52,366 nucleotides of DNA from a virus: IMG/VR virus record IMGVR_UViG_3300030000_000014; one strand, written 5' to 3'. The position numbers and the translations under genes were made by a program. The notes under the pieces were generated by a model, which ran no database searches, had not been told where the DNA came from, and was given only the letters and a program-made list of their open reading frames with translations. Shown in pieces: positions 2,590 through 48,457 of the stretch; position 1 is the stretch's first letter, and each line of letters starts with the position of its first letter.

Positions 2590-2591
2590 TC

Positions 2592-4117: not shown

Positions 4118-4178
4118 AAAGGGAAACGTAATGCAATCACAAAAATTTAATTCTTTTTCGTGGGATTATTTCAAAAAT

Positions 4179-4212
4179 GTGATTGCATTACACTCACTTT
4201 TATATATCTTTA
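4179..4212 (+). promoter_or_regulatory. Palindrome plus -7 box cassette, copy A
   Basis: GTGATTGCATTACACTCAC (4179-4197), then 7 nt, then TATCTTTA (4205-4212). Flanked by an A-run upstream and a T-run downstream. Confidence 0.6.
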
Positions 4213-4324
4213 CATCCTCAATCAATAGGAGTAGCAGCCTAGATAAAAATTTTACGACCCCTTTTTTCCTATTCCGACCTGCTACTCGGAAGTTTGGAAA
4301 ATTGGGGTTTCGTTTTATACACAA

Positions 4325-5591: not shown

Positions 5592-6159
5592 AAAGTTCAA
5601 AGAGCAGTTAGGTACAATTACTCAGTACCTGGAGCGATTCAACCCAACGTCTGTACAAGATGGATTGCTTAGAGCTAGAGCCGGATTTGTAGAATGCAAG
5701 TCATACGATTTACCAACCTTGGAAATGTCGGCACAGATTTACGGAGAAAAGGCCATTGTCGTATGGATCAAGATTCAACTTGAAAACCTCAATGAATACT
5801 GTGGAGTAAAGGAAAAAATGTCACTAGAACAACTTAGCGAAGTTTCGAAAATAATCTTTTACACCTATCCACAATTGAACATTGCTGAAATAGCTTTTTT
5901 CATTTTGAAATTCAAATCAGGCTATTTTGGACAGTTCTATGGCTGTGTTGATCCATTGAAAATTTCTTCCGCATTCTGCCAATTTATGATGGATAGAATG
6001 GATGCTTTAAACGCTGCACAGCGAGATAGTAAACGTCAAGAGATAGAATGGAGCGTACAAAACGATATGGCTCAAAAGTTACTGAAAGAAAGAATTATTC
6101 GGAAACGAAAAAAAATAATGTCAATAAAAAAAATCAGAATCAAACGAATTAAAAAGTAG
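5506..6159 (+). CDS. Hypothetical protein (start uncertain: 5506 or 5725)
   Basis: ORF track. Overlaps the upstream gene by 86 nt if it starts at 5506. Basic C-terminus. Confidence 0.5.
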   Translation: MELNRKEIAQVTGKVNCLQKLPKLSPQIEKFKEQLGTITQYLERFNPTSVQDGLLRARAGFVECKSYDLPTLEMSAQIYGEKAIVVWIKIQLENLNEYCGVKEKMSLEQLSEVSKIIFYTYPQLNIAEIAFFILKFKSGYFGQFYGCVDPLKISSAFCQFMMDRMDALNAAQRDSKRQEIEWSVQNDMAQKLLKERIIRKRKKIMSIKKIRIKRIKK

Positions 6160-6163
6160 CAGT

Positions 6164-6733
6164 ATGGACGAAAACAAAAAAAATGAGTTTTTGATTTTCA
6201 CAAAGAAATTTGATACACTCGAAGATGTCCTTAAGGACAAAGAGTTTCAAACGTTTCTATCCAGTGAAATGGATAGTGTGAAGAAAGGCAGAATGGTAGA
6301 ACCACCTGCAGGATTCAGGTACAAACGAGACGGATATGATCAGTTAAAAGAAAATGGTCGTTTCAGAGTTGAATACATTATCAGTCAGTACTCATTGATT
6401 GAACAAAAGAAATGCGAACTGCCAGGTTCGATCAGAAAATTTATTGAGGGTCTTGTGATCAGTGCAACTGTAAAAATGCGAGACTTCTATTCTATCAGAG
6501 TCACCGAAGGATTGATATTTACAGGAAAGAATTTCACAGGTCGTGTTGAAATCCTAGCATTCGATTTCCCTAACAAAATACTGAAAGTGGAGTGTACAAC
6601 CAAAACCAACGAACAGTTCAACACATGGCCTGAGGATTGGGATTTACAGCACACCATTTGGGGCTTTGAAAGCGGTGAATACTTCGCTGCAACATTTGAA
6701 AATTATCCACCAACAAAAATTCAAGCAGTATGA
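6164..6733 (+). CDS. Hypothetical protein
   Basis: ORF track. Preceded by the AGTAGCAGTATG start context. Confidence 0.55.
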   Translation: MDENKKNEFLIFTKKFDTLEDVLKDKEFQTFLSSEMDSVKKGRMVEPPAGFRYKRDGYDQLKENGRFRVEYIISQYSLIEQKKCELPGSIRKFIEGLVISATVKMRDFYSIRVTEGLIFTGKNFTGRVEILAFDFPNKILKVECTTKTNEQFNTWPEDWDLQHTIWGFESGEYFAATFENYPPTKIQAV

Positions 6734-7377
6734 GCGAGTCAATGACAAATGCAATGGAATCTTTCAAGGAAGTTCGAAAAGCAACGAAAATTAAAACCCA
6801 TGTTCTTTGGATTTCTCCAACGTTTCCACATGATCATCCGAGAAAGGGAGAAAGAACAGATTTCCCCTGTAAGATTTTAAATGCAATTGGTTTCAGTGGT
6901 GGTCACATGGAATTATATGCAAGATGTCTCACTTCATGTAAGCGACCATGCTACAGAAGAATGATTGAGCCAAAACTTCATACTTGTCGGGCTGACTCCA
7001 AAAACAGCAAAAAAAAGAAAGGAGCTTACGAAGAATGGAAACGAAAGATTGACGAAGTAAACCGTGGCGAAGCAATTCTTTCAGTACGGATGTGGTCGGG
7101 AAGTGCTTACAATAGACTACACGATGGAAGTCACCCTGTCGAAATTGCTCAGTTTGATAAAGATTCAGGAATTGGAGTACAACGGTTAGGATTCAGTAGA
7201 AAGATTGATTATCCATTCATTGAAAATGGAAAAGATGGTGATTTATACCCAATCTTAGATATTGAAAAAATAGCCCAAAATGATGGCTTATCCTTCGCTG
7301 ATTTCAGATCATGGTTTATGAAAGCAGACCTATCAAAACCAGTTGCTCTTATTCACTTCACTAAATTCAGATATTGA
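6730..7377 (+). CDS. Hypothetical protein
   Basis: ORF track. ATGA start/stop overlap with the upstream gene. Confidence 0.55.
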   Translation: MSESMTNAMESFKEVRKATKIKTHVLWISPTFPHDHPRKGERTDFPCKILNAIGFSGGHMELYARCLTSCKRPCYRRMIEPKLHTCRADSKNSKKKKGAYEEWKRKIDEVNRGEAILSVRMWSGSAYNRLHDGSHPVEIAQFDKDSGIGVQRLGFSRKIDYPFIENGKDGDLYPILDIEKIAQNDGLSFADFRSWFMKADLSKPVALIHFTKFRY

Positions 7378-7378
7378 T

Positions 7379-7666
7379 ATGAAAGACTTAAAAATGTTTC
7401 AAATTGAAGCGATAGATGAAATGTTCTGCATTATCGCAACTGACTCACAACACGCAAAAGAGATCCTCTTCAAAGAAGAAGATTCAATCCAACCCGATGA
7501 AATCATTGATACTAATGAATTGTCGGAAGAAGAAATGAAAGAACGCACTATTCTTGCAAATGTAGACATGGAATTGCCTGAAATGAACTTGTTTGACTAT
7601 TTCAGAGAATACAAAGGAGAAGGTGGACCCGGTGAATTAGTTTGTTCAACGCTTTACGTAGATTGA
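7379..7666 (+). CDS. Hypothetical acidic protein
   Basis: ATG at 7379 inside ORF 7343-7666. Confidence 0.45.
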   Translation: MKDLKMFQIEAIDEMFCIIATDSQHAKEILFKEEDSIQPDEIIDTNELSEEEMKERTILANVDMELPEMNLFDYFREYKGEGGPGELVCSTLYVD

Positions 7667-7667
7667 T

Positions 7668-7877
7668 ATGGACAGTAAAGTTGTATTGACCGACAAAAGC
7701 CCAATGCCATTTGGTAAACATAAAGGAGTTGAAATGGCAAATGTGCCCGGAGATTATTTGCTTTGGTTGTATGCTGAATATACTTCTCCAAATCCAAGGT
7801 TTGGATTTATAAATCATCCAGTCAAAGCGTACATTGAAGATAATTTGGACGTAATAAAGAAAGAGGTCAGGAAATGA
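7668..7877 (+). CDS. DUF3820-like small protein
   Basis: MPFGKHKGVEMANVPGDYLLWL matches the PFGKxKG...YLxWL signature. Confidence 0.5.
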   Translation: MDSKVVLTDKSPMPFGKHKGVEMANVPGDYLLWLYAEYTSPNPRFGFINHPVKAYIEDNLDVIKKEVRK

Positions 7878-8254
7878 AAAAATATAATCAAAAACCATAT
7901 TGGTTCATTATAAAAGGTGAAAAGCATTTGAATTTTTGTGGATATACCCCAAGATTTTGGACTTTGAATAATGAGTGTTCACACTATTTTCTATTAAATA
8001 GATGCCCTGATTCTCCCGAATGTATCGGATGCAATGCAATAAAATGCTTAACAGAACAAGAAGCGAAAGACAAATGTAAAGAAGCATTGACATTGAAACA
8101 ATACGGCAATTTCTATTGGTACATAAATGAACAGAAACACACATTTGGATTTGCAGTACATTTCCCTAGATTTGAATCAGAAGGGATTGGATTTGTTAAT
8201 TTTCATTGTGTCCTTTCTGAAATAATTTCTACTGATGAAATAACAATTAAATAG
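7874..8254 (+). CDS. Hypothetical Cys-rich protein
   Basis: ORF track. Start/stop overlap with the upstream gene. Confidence 0.5.
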   Translation: MKKYNQKPYWFIIKGEKHLNFCGYTPRFWTLNNECSHYFLLNRCPDSPECIGCNAIKCLTEQEAKDKCKEALTLKQYGNFYWYINEQKHTFGFAVHFPRFESEGIGFVNFHCVLSEIISTDEITIK

Positions 8255-8265
8255 CATATTAGAAC

Positions 8266-8535
8266 ATGAAAACAGCACTAATCATCTTTGCAATTTTGGT
8301 AATTATCAGAATTGTAACAAAGCCTAAAACAAGGCTTCTGTCTTATAAAATGCAGACGTTCCAAGCACTTAATTCTGATTGTACCACAATCGACATGGAG
8401 CTTGAACGAACAAGAGTATTCGGATTGATAAAGTATAATGTTGAAAGTACTTACGACATTCCTGATGGTCAATCCTTGAAGAAACATTTCAACCATTGGG
8501 ATAAATTAATTGAAACTAAAAAACCTCTGAAATGA
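8266..8535 (+). CDS. Hypothetical protein with N-terminal TM segment
   Basis: MKTALIIFAILVIIRIV hydrophobic N-terminus. Confidence 0.45.
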   Translation: MKTALIIFAILVIIRIVTKPKTRLLSYKMQTFQALNSDCTTIDMELERTRVFGLIKYNVESTYDIPDGQSLKKHFNHWDKLIETKKPLK

Positions 8536-8717
8536 CTACCTACGACATTAAACGACTAGCCCTAGTTTTAGCTGTTCAGGCAGACATAGAAGGAATGAAA
8601 GCTTTCAACAAAAACAGAGAGTTAAATGGTATGTGCGTAGGGTATGACGAAGCGCAATTTTTTTGCAAAGCAGAGGAATTACGAAATTTAGCAGCAATAC
8701 ACGATGAACAACTTTAA
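8532..8717 (+). CDS. Hypothetical small protein
   Basis: ORF track. Overlapping start/stop. Confidence 0.45.
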   Translation: MTTYDIKRLALVLAVQADIEGMKAFNKNRELNGMCVGYDEAQFFCKAEELRNLAAIHDEQL

Positions 8718-8726
8718 AATATAACC

Positions 8727-9092
8727 ATGGCAATATCACAAGACCACTTGAAAGCATTGATTGCAAAAGGATTTGATCCTGAGAAAATGAGTAAGTACGA
8801 AAGTGCAATTTTCCTACTTCAAAATATGTCCAATACCCTACGGCTTGAATATGACGAATACATGAAAAGTTGGGGGTTCAAAGGTAAAGCTTCCGAAATG
8901 ACTTTCAAGATCAACAAAGACACTAAAGTTTACCTTGAACATGTAAGAAGCATGATTCACGAAAGTCAAGAACAAAACTTCTTCATTGATTACGAAGGGT
9001 TTGATGCTCAGTTCAGAGCATTTGCAAAGCTTGAAGATTTACAAGAAAAAGATACTAAACAATTAAACAACAAAGAGTTATGCTTAAATTAA
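8727..9092 (+). CDS. Hypothetical protein
   Basis: ORF track. Confidence 0.5.
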   Translation: MAISQDHLKALIAKGFDPEKMSKYESAIFLLQNMSNTLRLEYDEYMKSWGFKGKASEMTFKINKDTKVYLEHVRSMIHESQEQNFFIDYEGFDAQFRAFAKLEDLQEKDTKQLNNKELCLN

Positions 9093-9502
9093 TCACTATC
9101 GGGCATCTTGGAAATGATGCAACAATCAAAGAGTGGAGCGGTCATACTTATGCTGCATTCTCAGTAGCTAATACCGAAAGTTACACTGATGGACAAGGAG
9201 TTAAACATGAAACGACAGAGTGGATTTCATGCTTAAAGCGAGTAAAGGATGGAAGTAGTGCTTTAGTTCCATTATTGAAAAAAGGCACTAAGGTTTATGT
9301 CGAAGGGCAACTTTCAAAGAAAATGTTTGAGAAAGCTGGTCAAATGACTTGTGGCCTGAACTGCAACGTTTCTCATTTGGAACTATTAAGTCCGAAACAA
9401 GCCGATTCTCAGGCTCAACAAGGACCTTTAAAAGCTGAACCAATACCAACAACCACCGAACCGCTTCCAAGTGCTAGTGAAGGTGAAGATTTGCCATTCT
9501 AA
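9080..9502 (+). CDS. ssb: Single-stranded DNA-binding protein
   Basis: OB-fold N-terminus (ITIGHLGNDATIKE...TEWISC...VYVEGQL), a Pro/Gln-rich linker and the acidic tip EDLPF. Confidence 0.85.
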   Translation: MLKLITIGHLGNDATIKEWSGHTYAAFSVANTESYTDGQGVKHETTEWISCLKRVKDGSSALVPLLKKGTKVYVEGQLSKKMFEKAGQMTCGLNCNVSHLELLSPKQADSQAQQGPLKAEPIPTTTEPLPSASEGEDLPF

Positions 9503-9504
9503 TC

Positions 9505-9942
9505 ATGACTTGGATTGACAGATCAAGGCCGAAAGGCGCAAAAGTTCAAAAATCAACACGAAGTAAGAAAGTAGAACGTCTCGATATAGTGTTTTCGAAA
9601 TTCATTCGAAGACGTGATTGCAGTTTTACTTTTGGTCGTTGTATCAGCTGTGGAAAGATAATCAAGTTCGAAGATTGTGATTGCGGTCATTATGTGAACA
9701 GAAAACACATGTCAACCAGGTTTGACGAACACAATTGCAACGCTCAGTGTCGTTCCTGCAACCGTTTTGACGAAGGGAACATACAGGGCTACCGAAAGGG
9801 TTTGATTGCGAAATATGGCGAGAAAATAGCTGAATCACTCGAAATAAAGAAGTTCAACACCTGTAATTTGTCAGAAGTAGAAATTGACCTACTTTTTGTT
9901 CATTACAAGAAAAAATTGAAAGAAATTGAACAAAAACGCTAA
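9505..9942 (+). CDS. ninG: NinG-like recombination protein
   Basis: CISCGK...CGHY...R...FDEHNCNAQCRSCNRFDEGN..GY Cys/His pattern typical of lambda NinG. Confidence 0.7.
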   Translation: MTWIDRSRPKGAKVQKSTRSKKVERLDIVFSKFIRRRDCSFTFGRCISCGKIIKFEDCDCGHYVNRKHMSTRFDEHNCNAQCRSCNRFDEGNIQGYRKGLIAKYGEKIAESLEIKKFNTCNLSEVEIDLLFVHYKKKLKEIEQKR

Positions 9943-9966
9943 TTATTTTCATTTTTAACGCAAAAA

Positions 9967-10000
9967 GTGATTGTTATACACTCACTTTTTGCTACTTTTA
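9967..10000 (+). promoter_or_regulatory. Palindrome plus -7 box cassette, copy B
   Basis: GTGATTGTTATACACTCAC (9967-9985), then 7 nt, then TACTTTTA (9993-10000). The leader that follows carries an 11-bp inverted repeat (10047-10057 / 10078-10088). Confidence 0.6.
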
Positions 10001-10119
10001 CATCACAATTCAATAATTAAGGCAAAAGCTCACAAGCGTGTGAATTTTTGAAAGAAAGCACTCCACACATTGCACCATTTCTTTCAAAGCCTTAGTTGTT
10101 GAAACAAAACAGTAGCAGA

Positions 10120-10551
10120 ATGACAAAAGTAAAACTTTACACCGGTTACTTCGGTAATTTCAGAGCATTGCAAAACAACAATGTTTTAATGATTAGTATA
10201 AGTCGTTATCCTCCAAAAAATTGGACTGGACCTGTAATGTTGGAGTTAGCTCCTTTATCTTACATGTTGAAGTTTGGAGCCGAAGAATACGACAAGTTAT
10301 TTGCTGAAAGAGTTCTAGGGGTTACAACTCCAAAAAACATTATTAAGCAGATTGAATGGATTGCCGAAAAAACAAATAGTACTAAAATTGCTCTTTGCTG
10401 TTTTGAAAAAGAACAAAAAGAATGTCACCGTTACAATGTGGCTCTTTGGCTTCAAAAAGCAGGTTTCGAGATTGAAGAATTCAAAGTTGAAACCAAAACC
10501 GAAATTGAAAAGCCAAAAGTTATTGATGCACAGACTTCACTTTTTGATTGA
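10120..10551 (+). CDS. DUF488-like protein
   Basis: ATG at 10120 behind CAGTAGCAGA. LAPS-like segment and CCFEKEQKECHRYNVALWL resemble the DUF488 C-terminal signature. Confidence 0.45.
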   Translation: MTKVKLYTGYFGNFRALQNNNVLMISISRYPPKNWTGPVMLELAPLSYMLKFGAEEYDKLFAERVLGVTTPKNIIKQIEWIAEKTNSTKIALCCFEKEQKECHRYNVALWLQKAGFEIEEFKVETKTEIEKPKVIDAQTSLFD

Positions 10552-10557
10552 AGTAAT

Positions 10558-11046
10558 ATGGAAATCAAAAAAGAATTTATTGCAATATCAAAAGGATATT
10601 TTGTTTCCAAACAAGGGGTTGTTTATAGTCCGAAAGGAAATGTATTGAAATTATCAACTGCTCGTGGATATAGTAAATTTGAAATAAGAATTAATGGTGA
10701 AAAAGCATCTATAAGAGTTCATAGACTTCAAGCATTTCAAAAATTCGGAAGTGAAATTTATAAAGAAGGGGTTGAAGTTCGGCATTTTAATGGTATTCCA
10801 TTAGATAATTCTTGGGAAAATATATTGATCGGAACAAGAAGTGAAAATCAAATGGATATTCCTAAGTTAGTAAGAAATACACGTGGATTGACTGGAACTA
10901 AAGAAATTATAAAATACCCTTTTGATCAGGTTTTGGAAATTAGAAAGTACCGTGAAGATGGTCATTCGTATAAGGAAATAATGGAAAGATATAACATTAC
11001 TGATAGAAGTACTGTAAGTTATCTTATCAATAAACGAGTAATGTAA
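10558..11046 (+). CDS. Free-standing HNH homing endonuclease (HNH_3-like) with C-terminal HTH
   Basis: VHRLQAF...VRHFNGIPLDNSWENILIGTRSENQMD. C-terminal YKEIMERYNITDRSTVSYLI. Confidence 0.7.
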   Translation: MEIKKEFIAISKGYFVSKQGVVYSPKGNVLKLSTARGYSKFEIRINGEKASIRVHRLQAFQKFGSEIYKEGVEVRHFNGIPLDNSWENILIGTRSENQMDIPKLVRNTRGLTGTKEIIKYPFDQVLEIRKYREDGHSYKEIMERYNITDRSTVSYLINKRVM

Positions 11047-11164
11047 TTACCCCCGTCCTTAGCTCAAGGAAAAGAGTACTCCACACTTTATGGAGGGGTT
11101 GGCTGCGTAACTCAGTCAGGGCGGACAAATAATTTAGCCTGTAGGCACGGAAAAGTAATGAAAT

Positions 11165-11199
11165 GCGGGGAGTAATACGACTTCCCGCATAATTTTTTT
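11165..11199 (+). terminator. Intrinsic terminator
   Basis: GCGGGGAG-taatacga-CTTCCCGC followed by ataaTTTTTTT. Confidence 0.6.
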
Positions 11200-11211
11200 A
11201 AGTACAAAAGT

Positions 11212-12624
11212 ATGGCACTACAAACACCTGGAGCATTCTTTCTCGGAACGCTCGTTCCTTCTGAACAGAAGTACATGAAAACGATTTTGGAAAATGCACG
11301 CAAAGCAGGTTTCACACGTGTTGTTGAACCTTGTTGTGGTGCATTTGCTATGTCGCACCTAGCCATTCAGGCAGGATTTAAACCTGAACAGATAGAATCA
11401 AGTGATGTAACCATGTTCTCGTCAATTTTCGGTTATGCTATGATGGGAAAGTCTCTTGAAGATTTAGAGATTGAAGCAACCGGATTTTCGAAAGAAGAAT
11501 TGCTTGATCCTGCAACCTCGCTTTACGCATTGATGTACTTGAAAACAATGATGACTGCAGGTAGTGATTTTTTTTATGCCATGCTCAAAGATTTGGAGCT
11601 TCGCAAAGAAGAACATATTGCTAAGATTCAAGAGCAACTGGATCGTGGAAAAGGATTGCTGCAAGGTTTCAATTACCGTCCTCTCGATATGTTTGAGCAT
11701 ATCAACGAAGTGATCAATGATGAAAAGACAATCATTATCGCGAACCCTCCAACATACACTGCAGGTTTTGAAAAGTGGTACGGAACAGGTGGAAACATGA
11801 ACTGGAAAGAACCTGAGTATGGCATATTTGACCCAAAGACAGGATTAACCGATTTGTTCGAATTGATGAAAGGTGCAAAAGCACTGATAATTTGCTATGA
11901 AGAGAACGAAACGCAAAAGATGGCCGGCAAAGCTATCTTTACTCGTTACGGTGTTCGCAAAGGTTTCAATGTTTACCTAACTACCAACCAAGAAGAAAAG
12001 GCCGAAGCTCTTGCAGAGGGTAAAATGGTTGTTCGTTCCAATGAAAGCAAAATGTCACCGCTCGATTGCTCAACCCTCCCAACTGATTACGTAATTACTG
12101 AAAATTCCAAGATAGAATTCATGCAGGTTGAACCACAGTATTGCCAGTACTATCGTGGCATTTGGACTCACAACTTTGTAGGTGGTCAAGCCCAGGTAAA
12201 TGTAGTTTTGCTTATTGACCGATATGTTGCAGGAGTGTTCGGTTATCAAATAGCTATTGGTGCCATGGTTCTGAAAGATTTGCTGATCATGTTTGGAATT
12301 ACGATCCCGACAAAAAACTACCGATTGGGCCGATTACTCACCATGATAGCAACGAACCGGCAAACGCTGAAAGCAATGCTAACCGATTATCAAATTTCCC
12401 GACTTCATGGAGTTCAAACAACACAAATCACCAAGTACCCCGAATCAAAGGAAATGCGTGGTGTAATGAAGTTAGTTTCGAAAGAAAAAGGAAAGTTAGG
12501 CTACAAATTAATTTACAAAACCGAAATACAAGATCGTACCAAGGAAGAAACACTAAAGCTTTGGTTGAAAAAAGAAGAAACATGGAAACAGGAAAGAGCG
12601 AAAGCAAAATCACAACAGGAGTAG
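11212..12624 (+). CDS. Putative Dam-like (alpha-group) N6-adenine DNA methyltransferase with an extra C-terminal domain
   Basis: Motif I-like VVEPCCGAFAM and motif IV-like IIIANPPTYT about 140 aa later. The fourth position is atypical (T, then Y). Confidence 0.45.
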   Translation: MALQTPGAFFLGTLVPSEQKYMKTILENARKAGFTRVVEPCCGAFAMSHLAIQAGFKPEQIESSDVTMFSSIFGYAMMGKSLEDLEIEATGFSKEELLDPATSLYALMYLKTMMTAGSDFFYAMLKDLELRKEEHIAKIQEQLDRGKGLLQGFNYRPLDMFEHINEVINDEKTIIIANPPTYTAGFEKWYGTGGNMNWKEPEYGIFDPKTGLTDLFELMKGAKALIICYEENETQKMAGKAIFTRYGVRKGFNVYLTTNQEEKAEALAEGKMVVRSNESKMSPLDCSTLPTDYVITENSKIEFMQVEPQYCQYYRGIWTHNFVGGQAQVNVVLLIDRYVAGVFGYQIAIGAMVLKDLLIMFGITIPTKNYRLGRLLTMIATNRQTLKAMLTDYQISRLHGVQTTQITKYPESKEMRGVMKLVSKEKGKLGYKLIYKTEIQDRTKEETLKLWLKKEETWKQERAKAKSQQE

Positions 12625-13511
12625 AATTACCTTCCGGAGTTACTGTACTTGCAGATTTAGGTTATGGAATCGTAGTTGCAAGAGTTGAAATAAATTTAAT
12701 CCGTGAGCAGGATAAAAACGCTCACTTGATGAAACCTGAAATGTTTCGTCAATTGCATGAGAACATAAAAAAGAGAGGTGGGCTTGAAAGTTTACCTCTT
12801 TGTGCATTTACGGATAAAATAGAGGTTATCTCAGGACACCACCGTTTGAGAGCTTCAAAAGAAGCAGGATTGAAAGAGATAATTGTTTTGCTTGATATTA
12901 CAGGGCTAACAAGAAGCCAGATTGCAGCAAAACAACTTGCACACAACGCCATTAATGGTTTCGATGATCCTTCAATGTTGAAAGAGATTGCCAAAATGAT
13001 TACTGACGTAGACGACATGATTGAAAGTTTTATCGGAAAGGATGTAATAGGCGAACCACTTGCTGAATTGGAAAAGCTGTTGGCACCTATGGTGGACTTT
13101 GACTGGAAGCAATTACAGATTGTTTTCCTGCCACACCAATTGAAAGATTTGGAATTGCTCGTAAGTAAAACGCAAGGAAGTTTCGACTACATAGGCGCTG
13201 CATACATTGACCAGTATGAGCAATTAATGGAAACGTTAGCAAAGTATCAGAATTTCAAGAATGTAAAGAATCTCGGAACAGCCATGCATTCAATGATAAG
13301 CCTTGCCAATGCTGAAATGGAAGCTTCGGAATATGACGGAACGGAAGAATGGGTAACGTTATCACATTTGTTCGGTTCGGCAGCTATTCCCCAATCATTG
13401 AACGAAACGATGAAAAAAGTAATCGAAAAAATGAAAAAAGAAGGGGAGATTACCGAAAAGACAAAATGGAAATCACTAGAAGTACTAGCAAATCAATACT
13501 TAGGAGAATAG
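12582..13511 (+). CDS. ParB/Srx-fold (ParB-like nuclease domain) protein
   Basis: IEVISGHHRLRASKEAGLKEIIVLLD. ATG at 12582 inside the TTG-initiated ORF. Confidence 0.65.
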   Translation: METGKSESKITTGVELPSGVTVLADLGYGIVVARVEINLIREQDKNAHLMKPEMFRQLHENIKKRGGLESLPLCAFTDKIEVISGHHRLRASKEAGLKEIIVLLDITGLTRSQIAAKQLAHNAINGFDDPSMLKEIAKMITDVDDMIESFIGKDVIGEPLAELEKLLAPMVDFDWKQLQIVFLPHQLKDLELLVSKTQGSFDYIGAAYIDQYEQLMETLAKYQNFKNVKNLGTAMHSMISLANAEMEASEYDGTEEWVTLSHLFGSAAIPQSLNETMKKVIEKMKKEGEITEKTKWKSLEVLANQYLGE

Positions 13512-13514
13512 ATT

Positions 13515-13982
13515 ATGGGGAGACCAACTGATTATACACCTGACATTCATATACCATGGGTGCAAAGCCTAGCAATGGAAGGATTGATTGACAAGGAGAT
13601 AGCAAAATGCATTGGCGTTTCAAGGTCAACATTGAAGCTATGGGAGAAGATTTATCCTGAGTTTTCGGACGCCTTAAAAATTGGAAAAGACTGTGCTGAT
13701 GCTAAAGTACTTACTTCTTTGTTCAAAAGGGCTACTGGCTACACAGACAAAGAAAAGAAAGTAGTTATTGAGATGGATGCACAGGGCAACCAAAAGCCTG
13801 CACGAATTGAAACGACAGACAAACACATTGTTCCTGATGTAGGGGCGATTTGTTTTTGGTTGAAAAATCGCAGACCTGACGAGTGGCGTGACAAGAAAGA
13901 TGTTGAACTTTCCGGTAATCCCTTTGAGGATTTAATGAAGTCTGCAACAGCAACCGATGATGAAGAAGAAGCAAGCAAATGA
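13515..13982 (+). CDS. terS: Terminase small subunit
   Basis: MGRPTDYTPD... plus HTH (IAKCIGVSRSTLKLWEKIYPEF). Sits directly upstream of TerL. Confidence 0.75.
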   Translation: MGRPTDYTPDIHIPWVQSLAMEGLIDKEIAKCIGVSRSTLKLWEKIYPEFSDALKIGKDCADAKVLTSLFKRATGYTDKEKKVVIEMDAQGNQKPARIETTDKHIVPDVGAICFWLKNRRPDEWRDKKDVELSGNPFEDLMKSATATDDEEEASK

Positions 13983-15507
13983 CAAAGAAAAACAAATTGC
14001 AGTTTTCAAGTCATGGCAAGCTGATTGGAATAAATTTGTTCGGGAGGTCCTAAAGGCTCGACTGGACAAAGAGCAACAGGATATTATCAGGTCTGTTCAG
14101 CACAACAAGATGACTGCGGTTGCAAGCGGAACAGCGAGAGGTAAAGACTTCGTAGCTGCTTGCGCTTCTTTGTGTTTCTTGTATCTAACTCCTAAGTTTA
14201 ATTCTAAAGGCGAACTGGTTGAGAACACAAAGGTAGCAATGACAGCACCTACAGGAAGACAAGTAACTAACATTATGGTTCCTGAAATTCGTAGGTTGAT
14301 GCGTAACGCTAAATGTTTGCCCGGCAGGATCGTGTCTGGAGATATTCGAACAAGTTACGAAGAATGGTTTCTAACAGGTTTCAAGGCTGACGATAACAAT
14401 ACGGAAGCATGGTCAGGGTTTCACGCTGTAAATACCATGTTTGTTGCAACGGAAGCTTCTGGGATGTCTGAATTAATCTTTAATGCCATCGAGGGTAACT
14501 TGCAGGGAAATTCAAGGTTGTTGCTAGTATTCAACCCTAATGTTACGACTGGTTACGCTGCAAAAGCAATGAAATCAGACCGTTTCAATAAGTTTAGATT
14601 AAATTCACTACACGCTGAAAATGTAGTCAATCGAAAAGTAACGATACCGGGTCAGGTTGACTTTGAGTGGGTGAATGACAAGATAAAGAGTTGGTGCACT
14701 CCAATTGTTGAGAATGAATTCAATGAGGGAGATGGAGATTTTATTTGGAATGACGAAACCAACCTTAAACACTTCTATAGGCCAAATGACTTGTTTCGAG
14801 TAAAAGTACTCGGAATGTTCCCGAAAGTTGGTGAAGATGTTCTTATTCCTTACGAATGGATTGAACTAGCAAACCAACGTTGGTTGATTTATCAGGAAAC
14901 AAATTCTACTGTTGATGTTCCTGTCCGGTTAGGTGTTGACGTTGCCGGTATGGGTAGAGATAAAAGCGTACTGTGTCCAAGGCGTGACAATTGGGTTGAA
15001 AAGTTCATAACACACCAGTCGGCAGGTAAGGCAGACCACATGCACATTGCGGGACTTGTAAAGAACTACATTAACCGTAAAGGTACGTTTGCATTCATTG
15101 ACACGATTGGAGAGGGTGCGGGGGTTTATTCAAGGCTTTTGGAGCAGAACTTTTGGAATGCTATATCCTGCAAGTACTCCGAAGGAGCTAGTGGACTGAG
15201 TGATATAAACAACGTTTACACGTTCGCAAACATGCGGGCATTTTTATTTTGGTGTGTGCGTGACTGGTTGGACCCGAAGAATAAGAATAACCCTTGTCTT
15301 CCACCCGATGATGAATTCACCGAAGAAGCAACAGAGATAAGGTGGAAGTTTCAATCTAATGGCTCTATCCTTATCGAACCGAAAGAAGACATTGTGAAAC
15401 GATTGAAACGCTCAACCGATAAGTTCGATTCACTTGCAAATACATTTTACCCTAGTGGTAATGGAACTATATTATCAGACGAAGATATTATTAACGATAT
15501 GCTATAA
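13957..15507 (+). CDS. terL: Terminase large subunit
   Basis: 516 aa. Walker A-like ASGTARGKDF. Position between TerS and portal. Confidence 0.75.
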   Translation: MMKKKQANDKEKQIAVFKSWQADWNKFVREVLKARLDKEQQDIIRSVQHNKMTAVASGTARGKDFVAACASLCFLYLTPKFNSKGELVENTKVAMTAPTGRQVTNIMVPEIRRLMRNAKCLPGRIVSGDIRTSYEEWFLTGFKADDNNTEAWSGFHAVNTMFVATEASGMSELIFNAIEGNLQGNSRLLLVFNPNVTTGYAAKAMKSDRFNKFRLNSLHAENVVNRKVTIPGQVDFEWVNDKIKSWCTPIVENEFNEGDGDFIWNDETNLKHFYRPNDLFRVKVLGMFPKVGEDVLIPYEWIELANQRWLIYQETNSTVDVPVRLGVDVAGMGRDKSVLCPRRDNWVEKFITHQSAGKADHMHIAGLVKNYINRKGTFAFIDTIGEGAGVYSRLLEQNFWNAISCKYSEGASGLSDINNVYTFANMRAFLFWCVRDWLDPKNKNNPCLPPDDEFTEEATEIRWKFQSNGSILIEPKEDIVKRLKRSTDKFDSLANTFYPSGNGTILSDEDIINDML

Positions 15508-15516
15508 AACTACATT

Positions 15517-16944
15517 ATGACTGCAAAAGAAATTATCAGCAAAGACAGAAAGGTCGAAGATATAATCACAGACCTTAAGAACAAATGTGTGACTGTGATG
15601 TCATGGTCTAGTATTGAAAAGGAATACGACCCGAAGAAACACCCTATCAAAATCGACAAGAATTTGCGTAAGGACAAAGTCAAGAAAGATGGTTCTATCG
15701 ACAAGGTTGCTCGGATCACTTACGGACTCCAAAAGCTGTCTACTCGTAGAATGACACAAATGGCGTTCTCTATACCTGTGAAAAGGATTTACAGTGTTGG
15801 CAATGATGAGACGAAGAAAGAACAGGCTAAGGCAATTGAACTTATTTACAAGTTGGCTCGTATCAATTCTGTGAACATGAAGCGTATGCACGCTTATTTT
15901 GCTGCTTGCGAAATTTGCACAGTTTGGTTCCCTGTGAAGAAAGAACAAAAACATAACAAGTACGGCTTTGAAACTAATTTTGAGTTGAAATGTCGTACTT
16001 ACTCACCTATGTCCGAGAAGTTCTCCCGGCTTGAAAGTGCTACTCTTTACCCATTATTTGATAACCTTGGCGATATGATTGCTCAAAGTTTTGAGTATGT
16101 GGTTAGTGAAAACAAAAAGGATATTACCTACTTTGAAACTTACTCTAAGGACTTGAAAAAGATTTGGAAAAAAGTTGATGGCAAGTGGGAAGAAGTAACC
16201 AATGATATTCCGATTAGCATTGGTAAGATGCCTCTTTCATACCTTGTTCGTCCTGTTCCTATTTGGGAAGATTCAAGTGGAAATGTTACTGAGATAGAGC
16301 TTACATTGTCAAGAGAGAGCGATATTATCAAGAAAAATTCTGCCCCACTTGTAAAAGTAACAGGAGAGTTTCAGCAGACTGGAAGTGTTGATATATCACA
16401 AGATGCAGCACGTGAGGTCTATCAATTGAAAGAGGGTGGAAATGTTGAGTACGTTACATTTGATCAGGCTATTGAAGCGATGAAGTTCATGGTTTCTACA
16501 TTGAAGCAAAACATTGAAGAAGAACTGCAATTGCCTAACCTATCACTAGAGAATGTCAAAGGACTTGGTGCTATATCCGGTGAAGCTCGTAAAACTCTAT
16601 TGACTGATGCACACCTGAAAGTAGGTGAAGAGAGCGGTGATATTGTTGAGTTCTTCGAACGTGAATTCAATGTTATCAAAGCATTTGTAGGTGAGATGAA
16701 GAAAGATTGGAAAGACTCAATCAATGAACTGGAATGTGAGCATATCATTACTCCATTTATTCAGAATGACGAATCGGCCACTATCGACAAGTTGATGAAA
16801 GCAACAGCCGGTAAGCAAATTATGTCTCAGAAAGAAGCAATTGGTCAGGCCGGACTTGTTGAAAACATTGATGCTGAACTAGAACAAATTCAAAAAGAAG
16901 AACTTGCAGCAAATGCTGTGAGTGCATTCCCAACCTCAATGTAA
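15517..16944 (+). CDS. Portal protein
   Basis: 475 aa immediately after TerL. Size and position fit a portal. Confidence 0.6.
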   Translation: MTAKEIISKDRKVEDIITDLKNKCVTVMSWSSIEKEYDPKKHPIKIDKNLRKDKVKKDGSIDKVARITYGLQKLSTRRMTQMAFSIPVKRIYSVGNDETKKEQAKAIELIYKLARINSVNMKRMHAYFAACEICTVWFPVKKEQKHNKYGFETNFELKCRTYSPMSEKFSRLESATLYPLFDNLGDMIAQSFEYVVSENKKDITYFETYSKDLKKIWKKVDGKWEEVTNDIPISIGKMPLSYLVRPVPIWEDSSGNVTEIELTLSRESDIIKKNSAPLVKVTGEFQQTGSVDISQDAAREVYQLKEGGNVEYVTFDQAIEAMKFMVSTLKQNIEEELQLPNLSLENVKGLGAISGEARKTLLTDAHLKVGEESGDIVEFFEREFNVIKAFVGEMKKDWKDSINELECEHIITPFIQNDESATIDKLMKATAGKQIMSQKEAIGQAGLVENIDAELEQIQKEELAANAVSAFPTSM

Positions 16945-16954
16945 TTGTAAAAAT

Positions 16955-17197
16955 ATGACAAATCAAGAATTAGCTTTACTTCTAATTGACGAAGACCCAA
17001 ACAATGAGATTTCTATTTGTGTAAGTGGGAATTTTCATAAAATAACTGGTGTTAAGTCTTTCAAAAAGTCAAATGTAACTATTTTACATGTAGAAGGATC
17101 AATCCAAGTAATTAGGAAAGATCATGCGGAATTTTATAAAGAAAAGTTCAAAGGTTCTTCAATAATAGAATCTGTTTCACCGATAGAAGTCGAATAA
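16955..17197 (+). CDS. Hypothetical protein
   Basis: ATG at 16955 inside ORF 16922-17197. Confidence 0.45.
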   Translation: MTNQELALLLIDEDPNNEISICVSGNFHKITGVKSFKKSNVTILHVEGSIQVIRKDHAEFYKEKFKGSSIIESVSPIEVE

Positions 17198-17386
17198 ATG
17201 GAAGAACAACTATTGATCCTTATTCAGAATATTCAAGACCGCAAGACAGCATCAGGTATCGCACCGGTTCATGTCTTGCGGTCGGAAATAGATAAAGCCG
17301 TTTCGGCATCACTGAATACACTTTTTACAGATGGTAGAATTAAAGTCGGGAATACTTCTAATGACAAATGGATAGTGAAAGTTTGA
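17198..17386 (+). CDS. Hypothetical small protein
   Basis: ORF track. Confidence 0.45.
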   Translation: MEEQLLILIQNIQDRKTASGIAPVHVLRSEIDKAVSASLNTLFTDGRIKVGNTSNDKWIVKV

Positions 17387-17411
17387 TTTTGCTTTACAAA
17401 GTTAGTATAAC

Positions 17412-17451
17412 GTGAGCAGCTATTTTTATAAAAAACGAAATAGTTGCTCAC
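17412..17451 (+). promoter_or_regulatory. 14-bp inverted repeat whose outer arms are GTGAGC / GCTCAC
   Basis: GTGAGCAGCTATTT-12 nt-AAATAGTTGCTCAC (13 Watson-Crick pairs plus one G-T). No T-run follows. Confidence 0.5.
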
Positions 17452-17475
17452 TAAAATAATCAAAAAGATAGTTTG

Positions 17476-17874
17476 ATGGAAACAAAAGAAATAAAGCCAA
17501 TACAAGTTAAGCCAAATCTATATGCAGTTTATTTCCCATTTTTAAAGGAGATTGCTCTTAAGTATGGCTATAACCTAGTTATTCACGGCTCAATGAATAG
17601 AGATATGGATTTGATTGCTATTCCATGGAATAATGAATTGCGTCCACACTTGGAAATGATAACCGAAATGTCTGACTTTATAGGTGGTGAGATAATGATA
17701 AATGATGACAAGCGACTATTCTCTGATAAACCACATGGACGTGTTGTTTACGTGATTGATATTTATAGAGGTGGATATTTAAGTGGTGGTGGATTTGCTG
17801 AAATGACATACCATAAAGACCCTCAATATTATCTAGATATATCAATAACACCAACAATCTATGGAAACAAATAA
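17476..17874 (+). CDS. Hypothetical protein
   Basis: ATG at 17476. HGSMNRDMDLIAIPW is only loosely NTase-like (see rejected list). Confidence 0.5.
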   Translation: METKEIKPIQVKPNLYAVYFPFLKEIALKYGYNLVIHGSMNRDMDLIAIPWNNELRPHLEMITEMSDFIGGEIMINDDKRLFSDKPHGRVVYVIDIYRGGYLSGGGFAEMTYHKDPQYYLDISITPTIYGNK

Positions 17875-18340
17875 CGAAATGAACTATTGGGCCAAAATGG
17901 AAATTTGCCATTTACCCTTTGCTATGCAAGATATGGTTAGATTCTGTTTAGGCGATTTCATCAATAGTGGTCAAAGTCGTATAGTATTTGAATGGAAGTT
18001 TAGACCAAACACTGTTATAAAGTTCTGCAAGGCTGATGACTGTCAATCTAATTGGACTGAGTATGCAATTTGGGAGTCTGTCAAAGACACTAAAAATGCG
18101 AAGTGGTTTTGTCCTGTCATAGATATATCCCCTTGTGGTAGATTCTTATTAATGGAAAAGGCTCGTGCAATTACTAACGAAGATAAGTTGCCAAAGAAAT
18201 TGCCTAATTTCTTTACTGACATACACACAGGTAACTTTGGATATATCGATGATAGACTTGTTTGTATAGATTATCAGTTCATAACACGTGGTATAGACTT
18301 CGCATTTTGCACACAGAACACAAAAGTAAATTGGAATTAA
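17861..18340 (+). CDS. Protein-kinase-like (APH/choline-kinase-like) fold protein
   Basis: SGQSRIVF (Gly loop), VIK (beta3 Lys), LLMEKA (hinge), TDIHTGNFG (DxHxxN catalytic loop), VCIDY (DFG equivalent). Confidence 0.45.
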   Translation: METNNEMNYWAKMEICHLPFAMQDMVRFCLGDFINSGQSRIVFEWKFRPNTVIKFCKADDCQSNWTEYAIWESVKDTKNAKWFCPVIDISPCGRFLLMEKARAITNEDKLPKKLPNFFTDIHTGNFGYIDDRLVCIDYQFITRGIDFAFCTQNTKVNWN

Positions 18341-19398
18341 TGCCAAAAGTATTCAAATTAGACCCGGAAGCAGCTCACTTTAGTCGTGTAGATCGATACG
18401 CACGACAAGTTGAGCAATTATACCTTGAAGCAATACAGGAAGCTGTAAGCATTGGTTCAACCATATCATTGCCCGAAGGTAGCGACCAGTTTACTTTTGA
18501 CCAATATCCTCAGACTAAAGCAAGGATTGATAAGTTTATGAAAACGATGTCTCAAAAAATGACATTCATTATCAACGAAGCAACTGGCAAAGAATGGTAC
18601 GAAGCTGTAGCCAACAAAGCTAGTTTGATTGATTCATTCATCAAAAAAACACAGCTCACTAAATCACAACTGGAATCGTACAACAGTCGAAATTTGGAAG
18701 CCTTACAAGCATTTCAGAACAGAAAAATTGGCGGTCTCAATCTATCGGAAAAGGTTTGGAAATACACCAACCAATTCAAAGGTGATTTGGAAATGGCGTT
18801 GGACATTGGAATTGGTGACGGACGTTCTGCAGCAGAGTTAAGCCGTGATGTTCGTTCCTACCTAAATGATCCTGAAAAACTTTTTCGAAGAGTTCGTGAT
18901 AAGCATGGAGTATTGCAACTTTCAAAGAATGCGAAGAAGTACCACCCAGGTGAAGGACAATATAGAAGTTCGTATAAGAATGCAATGCGATTGACTCGAA
19001 CATCAATCAACATGGCCTATCGTGAATCGGACTATCTGAAAAATCAGCAGTTAGATTTTGTTGTAGGTTTTAAAGTTGTTCGCTCCAACCACCATTTCGA
19101 TTGTTCTGTTTGTGATTCTTTGAAAGGCAATTATCCGAAGTGGTTCAAGTTTGTTGGTTGGCACCCACATTGCCGTTGTCATATCGAAGATATTCTTGCA
19201 AGCGAAGAAGAGTTCATCAATCACCAAAAACGAATACTTGCAGGTGAAGATGTAGAACTTAAATCAAAGAACGAAGTATCAACACTGCCGGAAGGGTTCA
19301 CTGGGTGGGTTTCCGATAATGAAGAACGGATCACAAATGCAACGAAAAACGGAACACTCCCATACTTCTTGAAAGACAATGCAAAACACTTGAACTAG
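18340..19398 (+). CDS. Head morphogenesis protein (SPP1 gp7 / Mu F-like)
   Basis: ATG at 18340 overlaps the upstream stop. C-terminal VGWHPHCRCH resembles the gp7-family HPNCRC motif. Position after portal. Confidence 0.65.
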   Translation: MPKVFKLDPEAAHFSRVDRYARQVEQLYLEAIQEAVSIGSTISLPEGSDQFTFDQYPQTKARIDKFMKTMSQKMTFIINEATGKEWYEAVANKASLIDSFIKKTQLTKSQLESYNSRNLEALQAFQNRKIGGLNLSEKVWKYTNQFKGDLEMALDIGIGDGRSAAELSRDVRSYLNDPEKLFRRVRDKHGVLQLSKNAKKYHPGEGQYRSSYKNAMRLTRTSINMAYRESDYLKNQQLDFVVGFKVVRSNHHFDCSVCDSLKGNYPKWFKFVGWHPHCRCHIEDILASEEEFINHQKRILAGEDVELKSKNEVSTLPEGFTGWVSDNEERITNATKNGTLPYFLKDNAKHLN

Positions 19399-19418
19399 CT
19401 AGTAATCAACACAATAAT

Positions 19419-19449
19419 GTAAAAGCAATCTGAAAATGGTTGCTTTTAC
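19419..19449 (+). terminator. Intrinsic terminator after the head morphogenesis gene
   Basis: GTAAAAGCAA-11 nt-TTGCTTTTAC (perfect 10 bp), followed by a T-rich tract. Confidence 0.6.
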
Positions 19450-19519
19450 TGTTTATATATGTTACGAACATGGCTATCAGTAAGTTATCACGTTAAACAA
19501 CATTAATTCACTTCAATTT

Positions 19520-19563
19520 ATGAGCGTATTGCACACACATTTCAATTATTATTGTTAGCTTTA
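19520..19563 (+). promoter_or_regulatory. Diverged seventh copy of the palindrome plus -7 box cassette
   Basis: aTGAGCGTATTGCACACAC resembles the left half of copies D and E. TAGCTTTA lies at 19556-19563 with longer spacing. Confidence 0.4.
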
Positions 19564-19598
19564 CACATTCTTTTAAACAAACAAATAAACACAAGACA

Positions 19599-19850
19599 AT
19601 GTCAGTAGCAACATTACCCCCAACAAAGACCGACAAGGCAGTTGAATTATTCAACCTTGGCAACATAGTAGCAGCTTTCGGAATTTTCAAAACGTTCAGA
19701 ATTGGTTTTTCAGCAGACGAACGTAGAACACTTCAAATAGCACATGAATCAATGACCGGGAAAGAGTCGTTCTACAAGTCATTACAGATTGATACAGACG
19801 CTATCAAGACACAAGCCTTACAACTTATCAAATCAAAGTATAATCTTTAA
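19599..19850 (+). CDS. Hypothetical small protein
   Basis: ORF track. First gene of the accessory island. Confidence 0.45.
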   Translation: MSVATLPPTKTDKAVELFNLGNIVAAFGIFKTFRIGFSADERRTLQIAHESMTGKESFYKSLQIDTDAIKTQALQLIKSKYNL

Positions 19851-19863
19851 ACAGTAGCAGAAA

Positions 19864-20139
19864 ATGGAAACAATTAATTGGAATGCCCCAAAAAGTGAGC
19901 ACGAACTTATTGGAAAAATCGTAAAACGTGCAGTAAAAGAATTAGATGAAATAGTAGTCATGGACTTGAACATGGATGTGACTGCAACTCATTGTAATGG
20001 AACTCCTTTGGATTTGGAAAAGCTATTAGCCTTTGATGAATTCAACTTTTCACATGATATTTATGGTATCATGGATCATATCGACAGGACCAATGGAAAA
20101 CTAACTCGTGGTTTTTTACCTCGTTGTTCAAAACACTGA
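19864..20139 (+). CDS. Hypothetical protein (conserved-looking DL.MD..A.H.NG.PLDL..LL..D.FNF.HD..GI motif)
   Basis: ORF track. CAGTAGCAGAAAATG start context. Confidence 0.5.
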   Translation: METINWNAPKSEHELIGKIVKRAVKELDEIVVMDLNMDVTATHCNGTPLDLEKLLAFDEFNFSHDIYGIMDHIDRTNGKLTRGFLPRCSKH

Positions 20140-22113: not shown

Positions 22114-22146
22114 GTGAGCGTGTTACGCTCACTTTTTGTATTTTTG
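22114..22146 (+). promoter_or_regulatory. Palindrome plus -7 box cassette, copy C (upstream of the capsid/tail genes)
   Basis: GTGAGCGT-GTT-ACGCTCAC (perfect 8-bp arms, 22114-22132), TTTTTG, then TATTTTTG (22139-22146), which matches TAnnTTTG. Confidence 0.65.
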
Positions 22147-26600: not shown

Positions 26601-26627
26601 ATCTATTTACTCCGGAACTTTTCGACA

Positions 26628-26669
26628 GAGTAGAGTAGAGTAGAATAAAGAAGAGTAGATAAGAGTAGA
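26628..26669 (+). repeat. GAGTA iteron tract, copy 2
   Basis: (GAGTA)x3-GAataaagaa-GAGTAGA-taa-GAGTAGA. Confidence 0.8.
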
Positions 26670-26707
26670 AAAAAGCATTTTCGCGAACAATTTTTCAGTA
26701 TGAAATT

Positions 26708-38444: not shown

Positions 38445-38477
38445 GTGAGCGTATTACAATCATATTTTATATTTTTG
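38445..38477 (+). promoter_or_regulatory. Palindrome plus -7 box cassette, copy D (upstream of the lysis genes)
   Basis: GTGAGCGTATTACAATCAT (degenerate right arm), then TATTTTTG at 38470-38477. Confidence 0.55.
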
Positions 38478-48380: not shown

Positions 48381-48457
48381 ACTTTTACACTATAATATAA
48401 AACCACTAAACAAAAGTAGTAAAAAGTGGTATATCGACACACATAAATTAAAATTAT

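Follow-up and report, generated by a model that had tools for sequence, protein, structure and literature searches.

Seven palindrome-promoter cassettes, probably phage-specific operators fused to host-type promoters, in a temperate Bacteroidota phage genome

The stretch of DNA analyzed here, IMG/VR virus record IMGVR_UViG_3300030000_000014 (52,366 nucleotides in full; the window), is the genome of a temperate siphovirus-type phage of about 52 kb with 37% G+C. It contains seven copies of a short intergenic element, which we call a cassette, in which a 19-bp palindrome is followed at a nearly constant distance by a promoter box of the host type. We conclude that the cassette probably combines an operator specific to the phage with a promoter of the host type. 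Each copy would be a regulated promoter whose core is the Bacteroidota sigma-A-type -7 box TAnnTTT[A/G], and a dimeric helix-turn-helix (HTH) protein encoded by the phage would bind the palindrome. Tentatively, we name a GerE-type protein made early in the phage program (gene at 48694-49245) as the reader of the cassette, acting as an activator.

Seven cassettes in the window

A search with GTGAGYGTNNNACRCTCAC, allowing up to three mismatches, returned exactly seven positions (4179, 9967, 19520, 22114, 38445, 40853 and 52109), and these are the seven copies that had been listed in an initial annotation of the DNA. Shuffled sequence would be expected to contain 0.31 matches, and none of 100 shuffles reached seven. 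In leave-one-out scoring with a position weight matrix (PWM), the seven copies gave 21-33 bits, and the next best match reached about 10-12 bits (105 kb, counting both strands). All seven copies are intergenic, lie on the + strand and face the downstream genes. The palindrome consensus in the window is GTGAKYGT-NNN-ACRMTCAC (19 bp, arranged 8-3-8), and the half-site consensus is AAWAW-GTGAKYGT, with T1, G2 and G6 invariant in 14 of 14 half-sites. An IMG/VR scan for the exact palindromes recovered 28 loci, about the number expected by chance, and none of these was in cassette context.

The box that follows the palindrome corresponds to the -7 element of the Bacteroidota sigma-A (sigma-ABfr), TAnnTTTG, in which the defined positions are T-12, A-11, T-8, T-7, T-6 and G-5 (PMC6847099); our promoter numbering (T-12 A-11 ... 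G-5) follows that used for Flavobacterium johnsoniae (PMC6847099). TAnnTTT was present in all seven copies, with the boxes starting at 4205, 9993, 19556, 22139, 38470, 40878 and 52135. The final base is G in two boxes (22139 and 38470) and A in five, as it is in the early promoter PR (48380); this A departs from the near-invariant G-5. The spacing of 6-7 nt between palindrome and box that had been annotated holds for six copies, and the gap is 17 nt in the copy at 19520. With this spacing the palindrome spans about -38 to -19, with its center at about -28, and occupies the place where a -33 element would otherwise sit; the center of the 19520 copy is at about -39, one helical turn upstream. 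A TTG at -33 spacing (18-21 nt) was found in only two of the seven window cassettes, and in 13 of the 37 cassettes collected from this and related phages (see below), always within the left arm. Because so few cassettes have this element, the promoters may need help in the form of activation. A generic scan for sigma-70 promoters and terminators gave no useful information; the promoter type of the organism differs.

Each copy stands before a functional block of genes, and the blocks agree with those described in the initial annotation. Cassette 1 (4179-4212) has the palindrome GTGATTGC-ATT-ACACTCAC (4179-4197), a 7-nt gap and the box TATCTTTA (4205-4212), and heads a replication block with DUF1367-like/Lin1244 genes. 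Cassette 2 (9967-10000; GTGATTGT-TAT-ACACTCAC, 7-nt gap, TACTTTTA) heads a packaging block with genes for DUF488, HNH, DAM-like methylase, ParB and portal proteins. Cassette 3 (19520-19563; ATGAGCGT-ATT-GCACACAC, 17-nt gap, TAGCTTTA) is the diverged copy, with 20.9 bits in leave-one-out scoring and its box one helical turn farther from the palindrome; it heads an island of small genes with RadC. Cassette 4 (22114-22146) is a perfect dyad, GTGAGCGT-GTT-ACGCTCAC, followed by a 6-nt gap and TATTTTTG, and heads the head/tail block (major head protein, tape measure). Cassette 5 (38445-38477; GTGAGCGT-ATT-ACAATCAT, 6-nt gap, TATTTTTG) heads the lysis block (endolysin, 39002-39601), and cassette 6 (40853-40885), which has the same 19-mer as cassette 5 with a 6-nt gap and TAGTTTTA, heads an island of primase-like and methyltransferase genes. 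Cassette 7 (52109-52142), again a perfect dyad (GTGAGTGT-ATA-ACACTCAC, 7-nt gap, TAGATTTA), lies between an SMC-like gene and a block with leucine-rich-repeat (LRR) and RecT genes. The earlier wording that a cassette stands at every module boundary is too broad: all seven copies head gene blocks, but the motif is missing from seven other intergenic gaps of more than 80 nt.

Window positions 1-327 and 52240-52366 are taken up by a tandem repeat of 60 nt (5.4 copies, 98% identical) that encodes LRR-like units of 20 amino acids. Since both window ends fall inside this repeat, the sequence is circularly permuted or circular, or the contig was cut within the repeat; for the same reason, the first gene after cassette 7 crosses the window junction.

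Several other sequence features lie near the cassettes. An isolated inverted half-site with spacer (GTGATTGCATTAC, 4128-4140, - strand), located 38 nt upstream of cassette 1, is the best non-cassette PWM match, at 10-12 bits. The leader of the replication block (4229-4308) contains two interleaved complementary pairs, GAGTAGCAG/CTGCTACTC (4229-4237 and 4279-4287) and ACCCCTTTTTTCC/GGAAAATTGGGGT (4257-4269 and 4296-4308), in the order A-B-A'-B', which is that of a pseudoknot; it had no Rfam match and is kept in at least four relatives (L047, ~11225-11320; L048, ~16160-16245; L134, ~17245-17315; L135, ~9110-9195). The leader GAGCTTGTAACACAG 3' of cassette 4 is kept in one relative. The sequence TAGTAGCAG occurs three times in the window (19666, 20345 and 52169; 0.23 expected), the copy at 52169 ends 1 nt before the ATG that follows cassette 7, and GTAGCAG precedes start codons in L048 too. 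The Bacteroidota are a phylum without Shine-Dalgarno sites, and TAGTAGCAG may be a translation-start context. Two short tandem arrays of the AGAGT/GAGTAGA type follow the tail-chaperone region (26627-26675) and the lysis block (40650-40694); ATTCGGGAAGAAT inverted repeats precede the first of these, and L048 has a similar array at the matching place (~6640-6700).

One architecture and many palindromes in related phages

We gathered loci around homologues of the 183-amino-acid product of gene 48694-49245 (the regulator) and around homologues of the terminase. Relatives were found in metagenome-assembled genomes of Paludibacter, Dysgonomonas and Rikenellaceae and in many metagenomes; a nucleotide search of the INPHARED phages with the terminase region gave no match. 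Phages whose regulator is 54-81% identical share a gene order: CI (on the - strand), small HTH protein, regulator, HTH_17 protein, SMC-like protein, RecT, metallo-beta-lactamase-fold protein and DUF1367/Lin1244.

The initial annotation had proposed looking for the motif in related Bacteroidota phages, and the architecture was indeed present there at matching gene boundaries, with a different palindrome sequence. We tallied 37 cassettes in 13 phages. They have in common an A-rich flank, a palindrome of about 19 bp, a T-rich gap of 5-8 nt and a -7 box, and they stand at the SMC-like/RecT boundary, before DUF1367/Lin1244 and before the head module. The position of cassette 7 is the best conserved. 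The distance from the palindrome frame to the TA of the box was 5 nt in 5 cassettes, 6 nt in 14, 7 nt in 12, 8 nt in 4 and 17 nt in 1, with one row mis-framed; overall, 36 of the 37 were counted as having a gap of 5-8 nt, the exception being the copy at 19520. Among the loci from the IMG/VR scan for exact palindromes, L008, L010 and L016 resemble cassettes, with a -7 box 17 nt downstream, and were rejected as cassette bearers; they have no protein similarity to the window.

The palindrome is uniform within a phage and divergent between phages at matching positions. L047, L051 and L054 have GTGATTGT-ATT-ACAATCAC, L048 has GTGTTTGT-AAT-TCAAACAC, and L042 has GTGTGTGC-ATT-ACACACAC. Three copies of RTGWGTAC-AWT-ATACTCAC were found in L029, two of GCGTTTAT-ATA-ATAAAC in L043, and six of GGTCGYYA-W-TARMGACY in one 57-kb IMG/VR contig (L030 plus L034). 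L052 has TGTTGCTY-ATT-AAGCAWCT and L053 has GTGTGTWT-AAT-ARACACAY; the palindrome of class B is GGTCGTTAATAACGACC. Because the palindromes are uniform within a genome, differ between genomes, tolerate changes that would break a hairpin and are locked to the promoter box, we think that they are read by a DNA-binding protein together with RNA polymerase rather than serving as terminators. One of two readings offered in the initial annotation, the one that places an operator or activator site at -33, is favored by the fixed gap, the uniformity within genomes and the tolerated mismatches; binding at these sites is predicted from sequence.

Candidate readers and the PR region

PR (48341-48387, + strand) is a host-type promoter without a palindrome. 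It has a TTG at 19-nt spacing (-33) and the -7 box TACTTTTA (48380-48387), and its CI-type operators (ATCAATATATCATTGATATATCAAT; types TTGATATATCAA / ATCAATATATCATTGAT) overlap the -33 and spacer region. A leftward lysogeny operon encodes a CI-like HTH_3 repressor (47936-48280, - strand), a Zn-ribbon protein, a protein of 68 amino acids and an XRE-type HTH protein of 113 amino acids (m113; 46846-47187, - strand), whose gene adjoins that of the integrase (45555-46877). Outside this operon and the integrase gene, the genome is a single long set of rightward genes. The early operon driven by PR encodes a small HTH protein of 79 amino acids in the Cro position (p79; 48458-48697, + strand), which has a TVRxW helix, and then the regulator (48694-49245, + strand), to which p79 is translationally coupled. 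An HTH_17 (excisionase-type) gene lies farther along the early operon (49510-49764). Upstream of the integrase gene are two GGTGGACA-N4-GTGGACAAAAAC repeats (45298-45309 and 45514-45525), the second of them 7 nt 5' of a TATCTTTG box, an arrangement that L054 shares; the repeats probably serve as arm-type sites for the integrase or control the int promoter.

A degenerate cassette, absent from the initial annotation, points leftward in the gap downstream of PR (PL; 48411-48444, - strand). It consists of ATGTGTGT-CGA-TATACCAC (48444..48426), a 7-nt gap and TACTTTTG (48418..48411); no other leftward box in the gap downstream of PR fits the consensus. The cassette faces PR and is aimed at the CI operon. 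Alone, this palindrome is not significant (PWM score of -5 bits), and the support for it is comparative: in six relatives (L042, L047, L050, L051, L054 and L056) a palindrome on the minus strand precedes TAnnTTTG by 6-7 nt, some 40 nt past the PR box, and likewise faces PR and is aimed at the CI operon. L048, which lacks the m113 and integrase genes in its 20-kb locus, lacks the leftward palindrome too. From the leftward copies in relatives, the protein that binds the cassette probably also controls the lysogeny operon; at such a promoter an activator would act like CII at PRE, and a repressor would be autoregulating. The PR box and the leftward -7 box face each other about 25-30 bp apart, an arrangement like the face-to-face switch of coliphage 186 pR/pL.

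We propose the following scheme. In a lysogen, the CI-like repressor would keep PR off. After induction or infection, PR would direct synthesis of the GerE/NarL-type regulator, which would then activate all seven rightward promoters together, and with them recombination, replication, packaging, accessory, head/tail, lysis and methylase-island genes. The regulator would also act on the leftward promoter that faces PR, and so on the CI/m113 operon, in relatives and, weakly, in the window.

The regulator was chosen because, once the exclusions described below are made, no other HTH protein is at once universal, early-expressed and of the dimer type. Its C-terminal part is a four-helix HTH domain of the GerE/NarL type (PF00196, E 9.3e-15; GerE (1fse), E 8e-6). 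In an AlphaFold2 model (mean predicted local distance difference test score, pLDDT, 92), Foldseek superimposed this domain on NarL, GerE, LiaR and RcsB at about 1 Å root-mean-square deviation. Domains of the NarL/GerE/LiaR type bind inverted repeats of 14-20 bp as dimers. Residues 1-118 (48694-49047) had no Pfam domain and no fold match in the PDB, and neither a receiver nor an autoinducer-binding domain was found. In this N-terminal part Cys77, Cys101, Cys107 and Cys114 are invariant and Cys78 is nearly so; the cysteines could form a metal or redox site. Every one of the 29 cassette-bearing loci has the regulator gene directly after PR, and in all relatives it is the second gene of the PR operon. 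This co-occurrence, together with a partial covariation of protein and motif, makes the regulator a candidate for binding the palindrome.

We compared the divergence of each candidate protein with that of the motif over 19 lineages by Spearman correlation, a test in which the pairs are not independent and ancestry is a confounder. The rho values were 0.53 for m113, 0.45 for the C-terminal domain of the regulator, 0.40 for p79 and 0.13 for the N-terminal domain of the regulator, and are not decisive. In favor of the regulator, its C-terminal domain follows the motif much more closely than its N-terminal domain does, and its Ser159 is confined to GTC-type lineages.

Several observations weigh against the regulator as an activator at the cassette. 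Its recognition helix (SIHTVxNHRxN) is nearly invariant while the palindromes differ widely: S149, H151, T152, V153, N155, H156 and R157 are fixed, and only 154, 158, 160 and 162 vary. The lineages with R158C (L134 and L135) show no new class of motif and have the common GTGWTTGT type. The protein m113 tracks the motif at least as well, and its putative recognition helix varies with the class of palindrome. A site that overlaps the -33 and spacer region, as the CI operator does at PR, is in a typical position for a repressor. Promoters of F. johnsoniae show weak conservation of the -33 element and more prominent AT-rich motifs at -18 and -28 (PMC6847099). Since the cassette has its T-tract and central AWT at these places, its promoter might be active without any activator. 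Finally, no recognizable 8-3-8 cassette was found in the 20-kb loci of a large human-gut clade (L077-L122) that has a 42%-identical regulator; this clade also lacks the neighbor genes for p79, m113, the SMC-like protein and RecT. One human-gut relative (L094) has an array of a 9-nt GAAAGTCTG unit at 14294-14557.

In a serious rival scheme, the palindromes are operators of a second lysogenic repressor, m113, made from the leftward CI operon and silencing seven intrinsically active module promoters in the prophage. PL would be autoregulated through its weak copy at 48426-48444, and the GerE-type protein would have another target or compete at the cassette (dual control). We consider this scheme less likely than activation by the regulator, with several points in its favor. 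The m113 model has a five-helix XRE-type HTH fold whose best PDB match is the N-terminal domain of phage 186 CI (Foldseek probability 0.98), although the E-value is weak (0.15). The protein is kept in most cassette-bearing loci and gave the highest motif-versus-protein correlation, but that value is confounded by ancestry and is not clearly above the one for the GerE C-terminal domain. Its putative recognition helix changes with the palindrome class (NRWxLNxVR in class A, PKSTFYDSRR in class B and ERTSFSRCET in L052), the operator position agrees with that of the CI operator at PR, and the cassette retains, as in host promoters, AT-rich features at -18 and -28. A weak copy at the promoter of its own operon would also fit negative autoregulation. 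Against this, L048 and L049 have intact cassettes, while neither an m113 nor an integrase gene was found in the 20 kb surrounding their switch, and the scheme needs two repressors as well as quick removal of the second on induction. In all relatives the m113 gene lies directly against the integrase gene or overlaps it, a position also typical of accessory factors for integration or excision. The HTH_17 gene is the more likely excisionase, which leaves m113 without an obvious role.

A combination of these two schemes, in which the GerE-type activator reads the features that do not vary (T-AWT-A at the center, A/T flanks and the constant spacing) and m113 reads the phage-specific arms, seems improbable to us. 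If such dual control were true, swaps of the arms would create separate "transcriptional immunity groups" within one Bacteroidota phage family, and one type of operator would govern both the lytic program and the lysogeny operon through the face-to-face PR/PL arrangement.

The remaining candidates were set aside. We assign the PR operators to the CI-like repressor: L047 has the palindrome of the window and the CI proteins of the two are only 34% identical, and the window, L051 and L030 share PR operators while the palindrome of L030 differs. As far as this mosaicism shows, CI is uncoupled from the palindrome and is excluded as its reader. An immunity system of the L5 type, with CI as its repressor, found no support either, because PR carries the TTGATATATCAA-type operators in place of the cassette motif and the motif did not covary with CI. 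The p79 protein is disfavored: the HTH of L053 is nearly identical to those of class-B (GTC-type) phages and its palindrome is of the GTG type, and the two are uncoupled between L053 and L030. Of three regulators that the initial annotation had suggested, p79 therefore drops out, and the other two, the GerE-type regulator and m113, were well chosen and remain the leading candidates.

Hairpin folding and comparison with known systems

The second reading in the initial annotation was a terminator joined to a restart promoter. In this explanation the palindrome acts as an RNA hairpin and, with the A- and T-runs, forms a bidirectional intrinsic terminator that insulates the modules, followed by an unrelated constitutive promoter; as the shared function of the cassettes it is distinctly improbable. 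Folding divides the window copies. Those at 9967, 22114 and 52109 fold strongly (-15.8, -19.4 and -18.3 kcal/mol; z-scores of -6.8 to -8.6), and those at 4179, 19520, 38445 and 40853 weakly (-3.8, -0.7, -2.0 and -8.1 kcal/mol). A stable fold (-10 kcal/mol or better) was present in three of the seven window copies and in 13 of all 37 cassettes, so that four and 24, respectively, fall short of it, and the AT-rich palindrome of L043, GCGTTTATATAATAAAC, folds at only about -4 kcal/mol. An Rfam search of the window gave no match.

The arms are also not maintained by compensatory change. The initial annotation had stated that the arms covary so as to preserve the dyad, and this did not hold: only the copies at 22114 and 52109 are perfect dyads, and the other five have 1, 2, 3, 3 and 4 dyad mismatches. 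The GCG/CGC arms that it had ascribed to its copy C belong to the 22114 copy, and the GTG/CAC arms to that at 52109. The mismatches (U-C, C-A and G-A in RNA) are uncompensated, and arm positions 4 and 5 agree no more often than independent draws predict. Moreover, the terminators of one genome need no common sequence, yet the copies share one, and the fixed distance of 5-8 nt to the -7 box would be unneeded in a terminator followed by a promoter. A simple terminator scan listed no copy in positions 1-20000. The cassettes resemble rho-independent terminators in that three copies have a GC-containing stem, a 3-nt loop and a T-run; they differ in that the cassette conserves sequence and not pairing, most copies are too weak, and all are locked to a promoter box.

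Part of the terminator reading may survive as a second job of the three strong copies. A shape of A-run, palindrome and T-run is present in every palindrome class. At 9967, 22114 and 52109 the dyads extend past the conserved core to arms of 14-15 bp (15 bp at 9967), and no other terminator lies upstream, whereas separate canonical ones precede the weak copies at 19520, 38445 and 40853 (19419-19449 for the copy at 19520; ~40748-40785 for that at 40853). Because of their long arms and the lack of another upstream terminator, these three copies may also be modest intrinsic terminators for read-through from the upstream block. A long hairpin elsewhere, GTGAGCAGCTATTT-N12-AAATAGTTGCTCAC (17412-17451), has outer ends GTGAGC...GCTCAC that resemble the cassette arms, with the wrong spacing and no -7 box; it may be a terminator or a coincidence.

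That the regulator is an alternative sigma factor or sigma-4 substitute, with the left arm as a -35-like element, is scarcely credible: weak Pfam matches to Sigma70_r4 and Sigma70_r4_2 (E ~2e-4) and the location of the left arm where a -33 element would be speak for it, but there was no Pfam match to Sigma70_r2 (region 2), the AlphaFold2 model matches only NarL/GerE-type effector domains in the PDB and its N-terminal domain is not sigma-like, downstream lies the same host-type -7 box as in PR, and the site is a two-fold symmetric dyad. We rejected a sigma-factor identity on the Pfam and structural results.

An operator fused to a host-type promoter and read by an early regulator would have a close parallel in the late promoters of phage P1. 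These control dispersed late operons and combine a normal core with a short inverted repeat, located between -35 and -10 and replacing the -35 element, that is read by Lpa, a phage protein made earlier. The seven window promoters would resemble them in having a dyad in place of the upstream element and a candidate regulator encoded in an earlier operon, that of PR. They differ in the box (the Bacteroidota -7 box here, the Escherichia coli -10 there) and in the dyad, which is 19 bp (8-3-8) here and 9 bp in P1. The candidate activator joins a GerE/NarL-type HTH to a new N-terminal domain, and we found no relation to Lpa. The cassette also serves early-type blocks (recombination and replication), and not late genes alone. 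Mu C/Mor and P2/186 Ogr/B are small activators that act on dyad sites at a few promoters with poor upstream elements, in a simple early-to-late cascade; their sites are centered at about -43 to -55 and the proteins are of other families, whereas the cassette is centered at about -28.

The switch region has its own likeness to lambda CII/PRE and to 186 pR/pL with CII/pE: the early rightward operon has the regulator gene after the Cro-position gene, a leftward promoter shortly past PR is aimed at the repressor operon, and PR and PL stand face to face, within about 40 bp of one another. Activators of the CII type serve lysogeny promoters only and bind direct or widely spaced repeats; the window cassette, unlike their sites, heads all lytic modules too. 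Phage L5 stoperators and P1 C1 operators are many copies of one repressor site, intergenic and oriented with transcription, and in L5 the repressor that binds the stoperators also controls the early lytic promoter. Here PR bears a different operator, the CI-like gene is uncoupled, and the sites are symmetric and locked to a -7 box. Compared with the effector domains of NarL, FixJ and LuxR, the regulator shares the C-terminal GerE-type HTH and differs in its N-terminal 118 residues with five conserved cysteines.

By these analogies, the kind of system appears to be known (P1 Lpa, Mu C, P2 Ogr), and the promoter type, geometry, protein and phage group appear to be new. Our literature search found no paper describing the cassette, and to our knowledge the control of transcription in Bacteroidota phages is almost unstudied. 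If the model in which the regulator activates the cassettes is true, one short operator-promoter unit and its regulator would explain the timing of gene expression across a family of temperate Bacteroidales phages. The cassette would aid the annotation of operon boundaries in metagenomic phage contigs, and its palindrome classes (at least 5-6) would provide a compact set of orthogonal, phage-specific inducible promoters for the Bacteroidota, which are poor in genetic tools.

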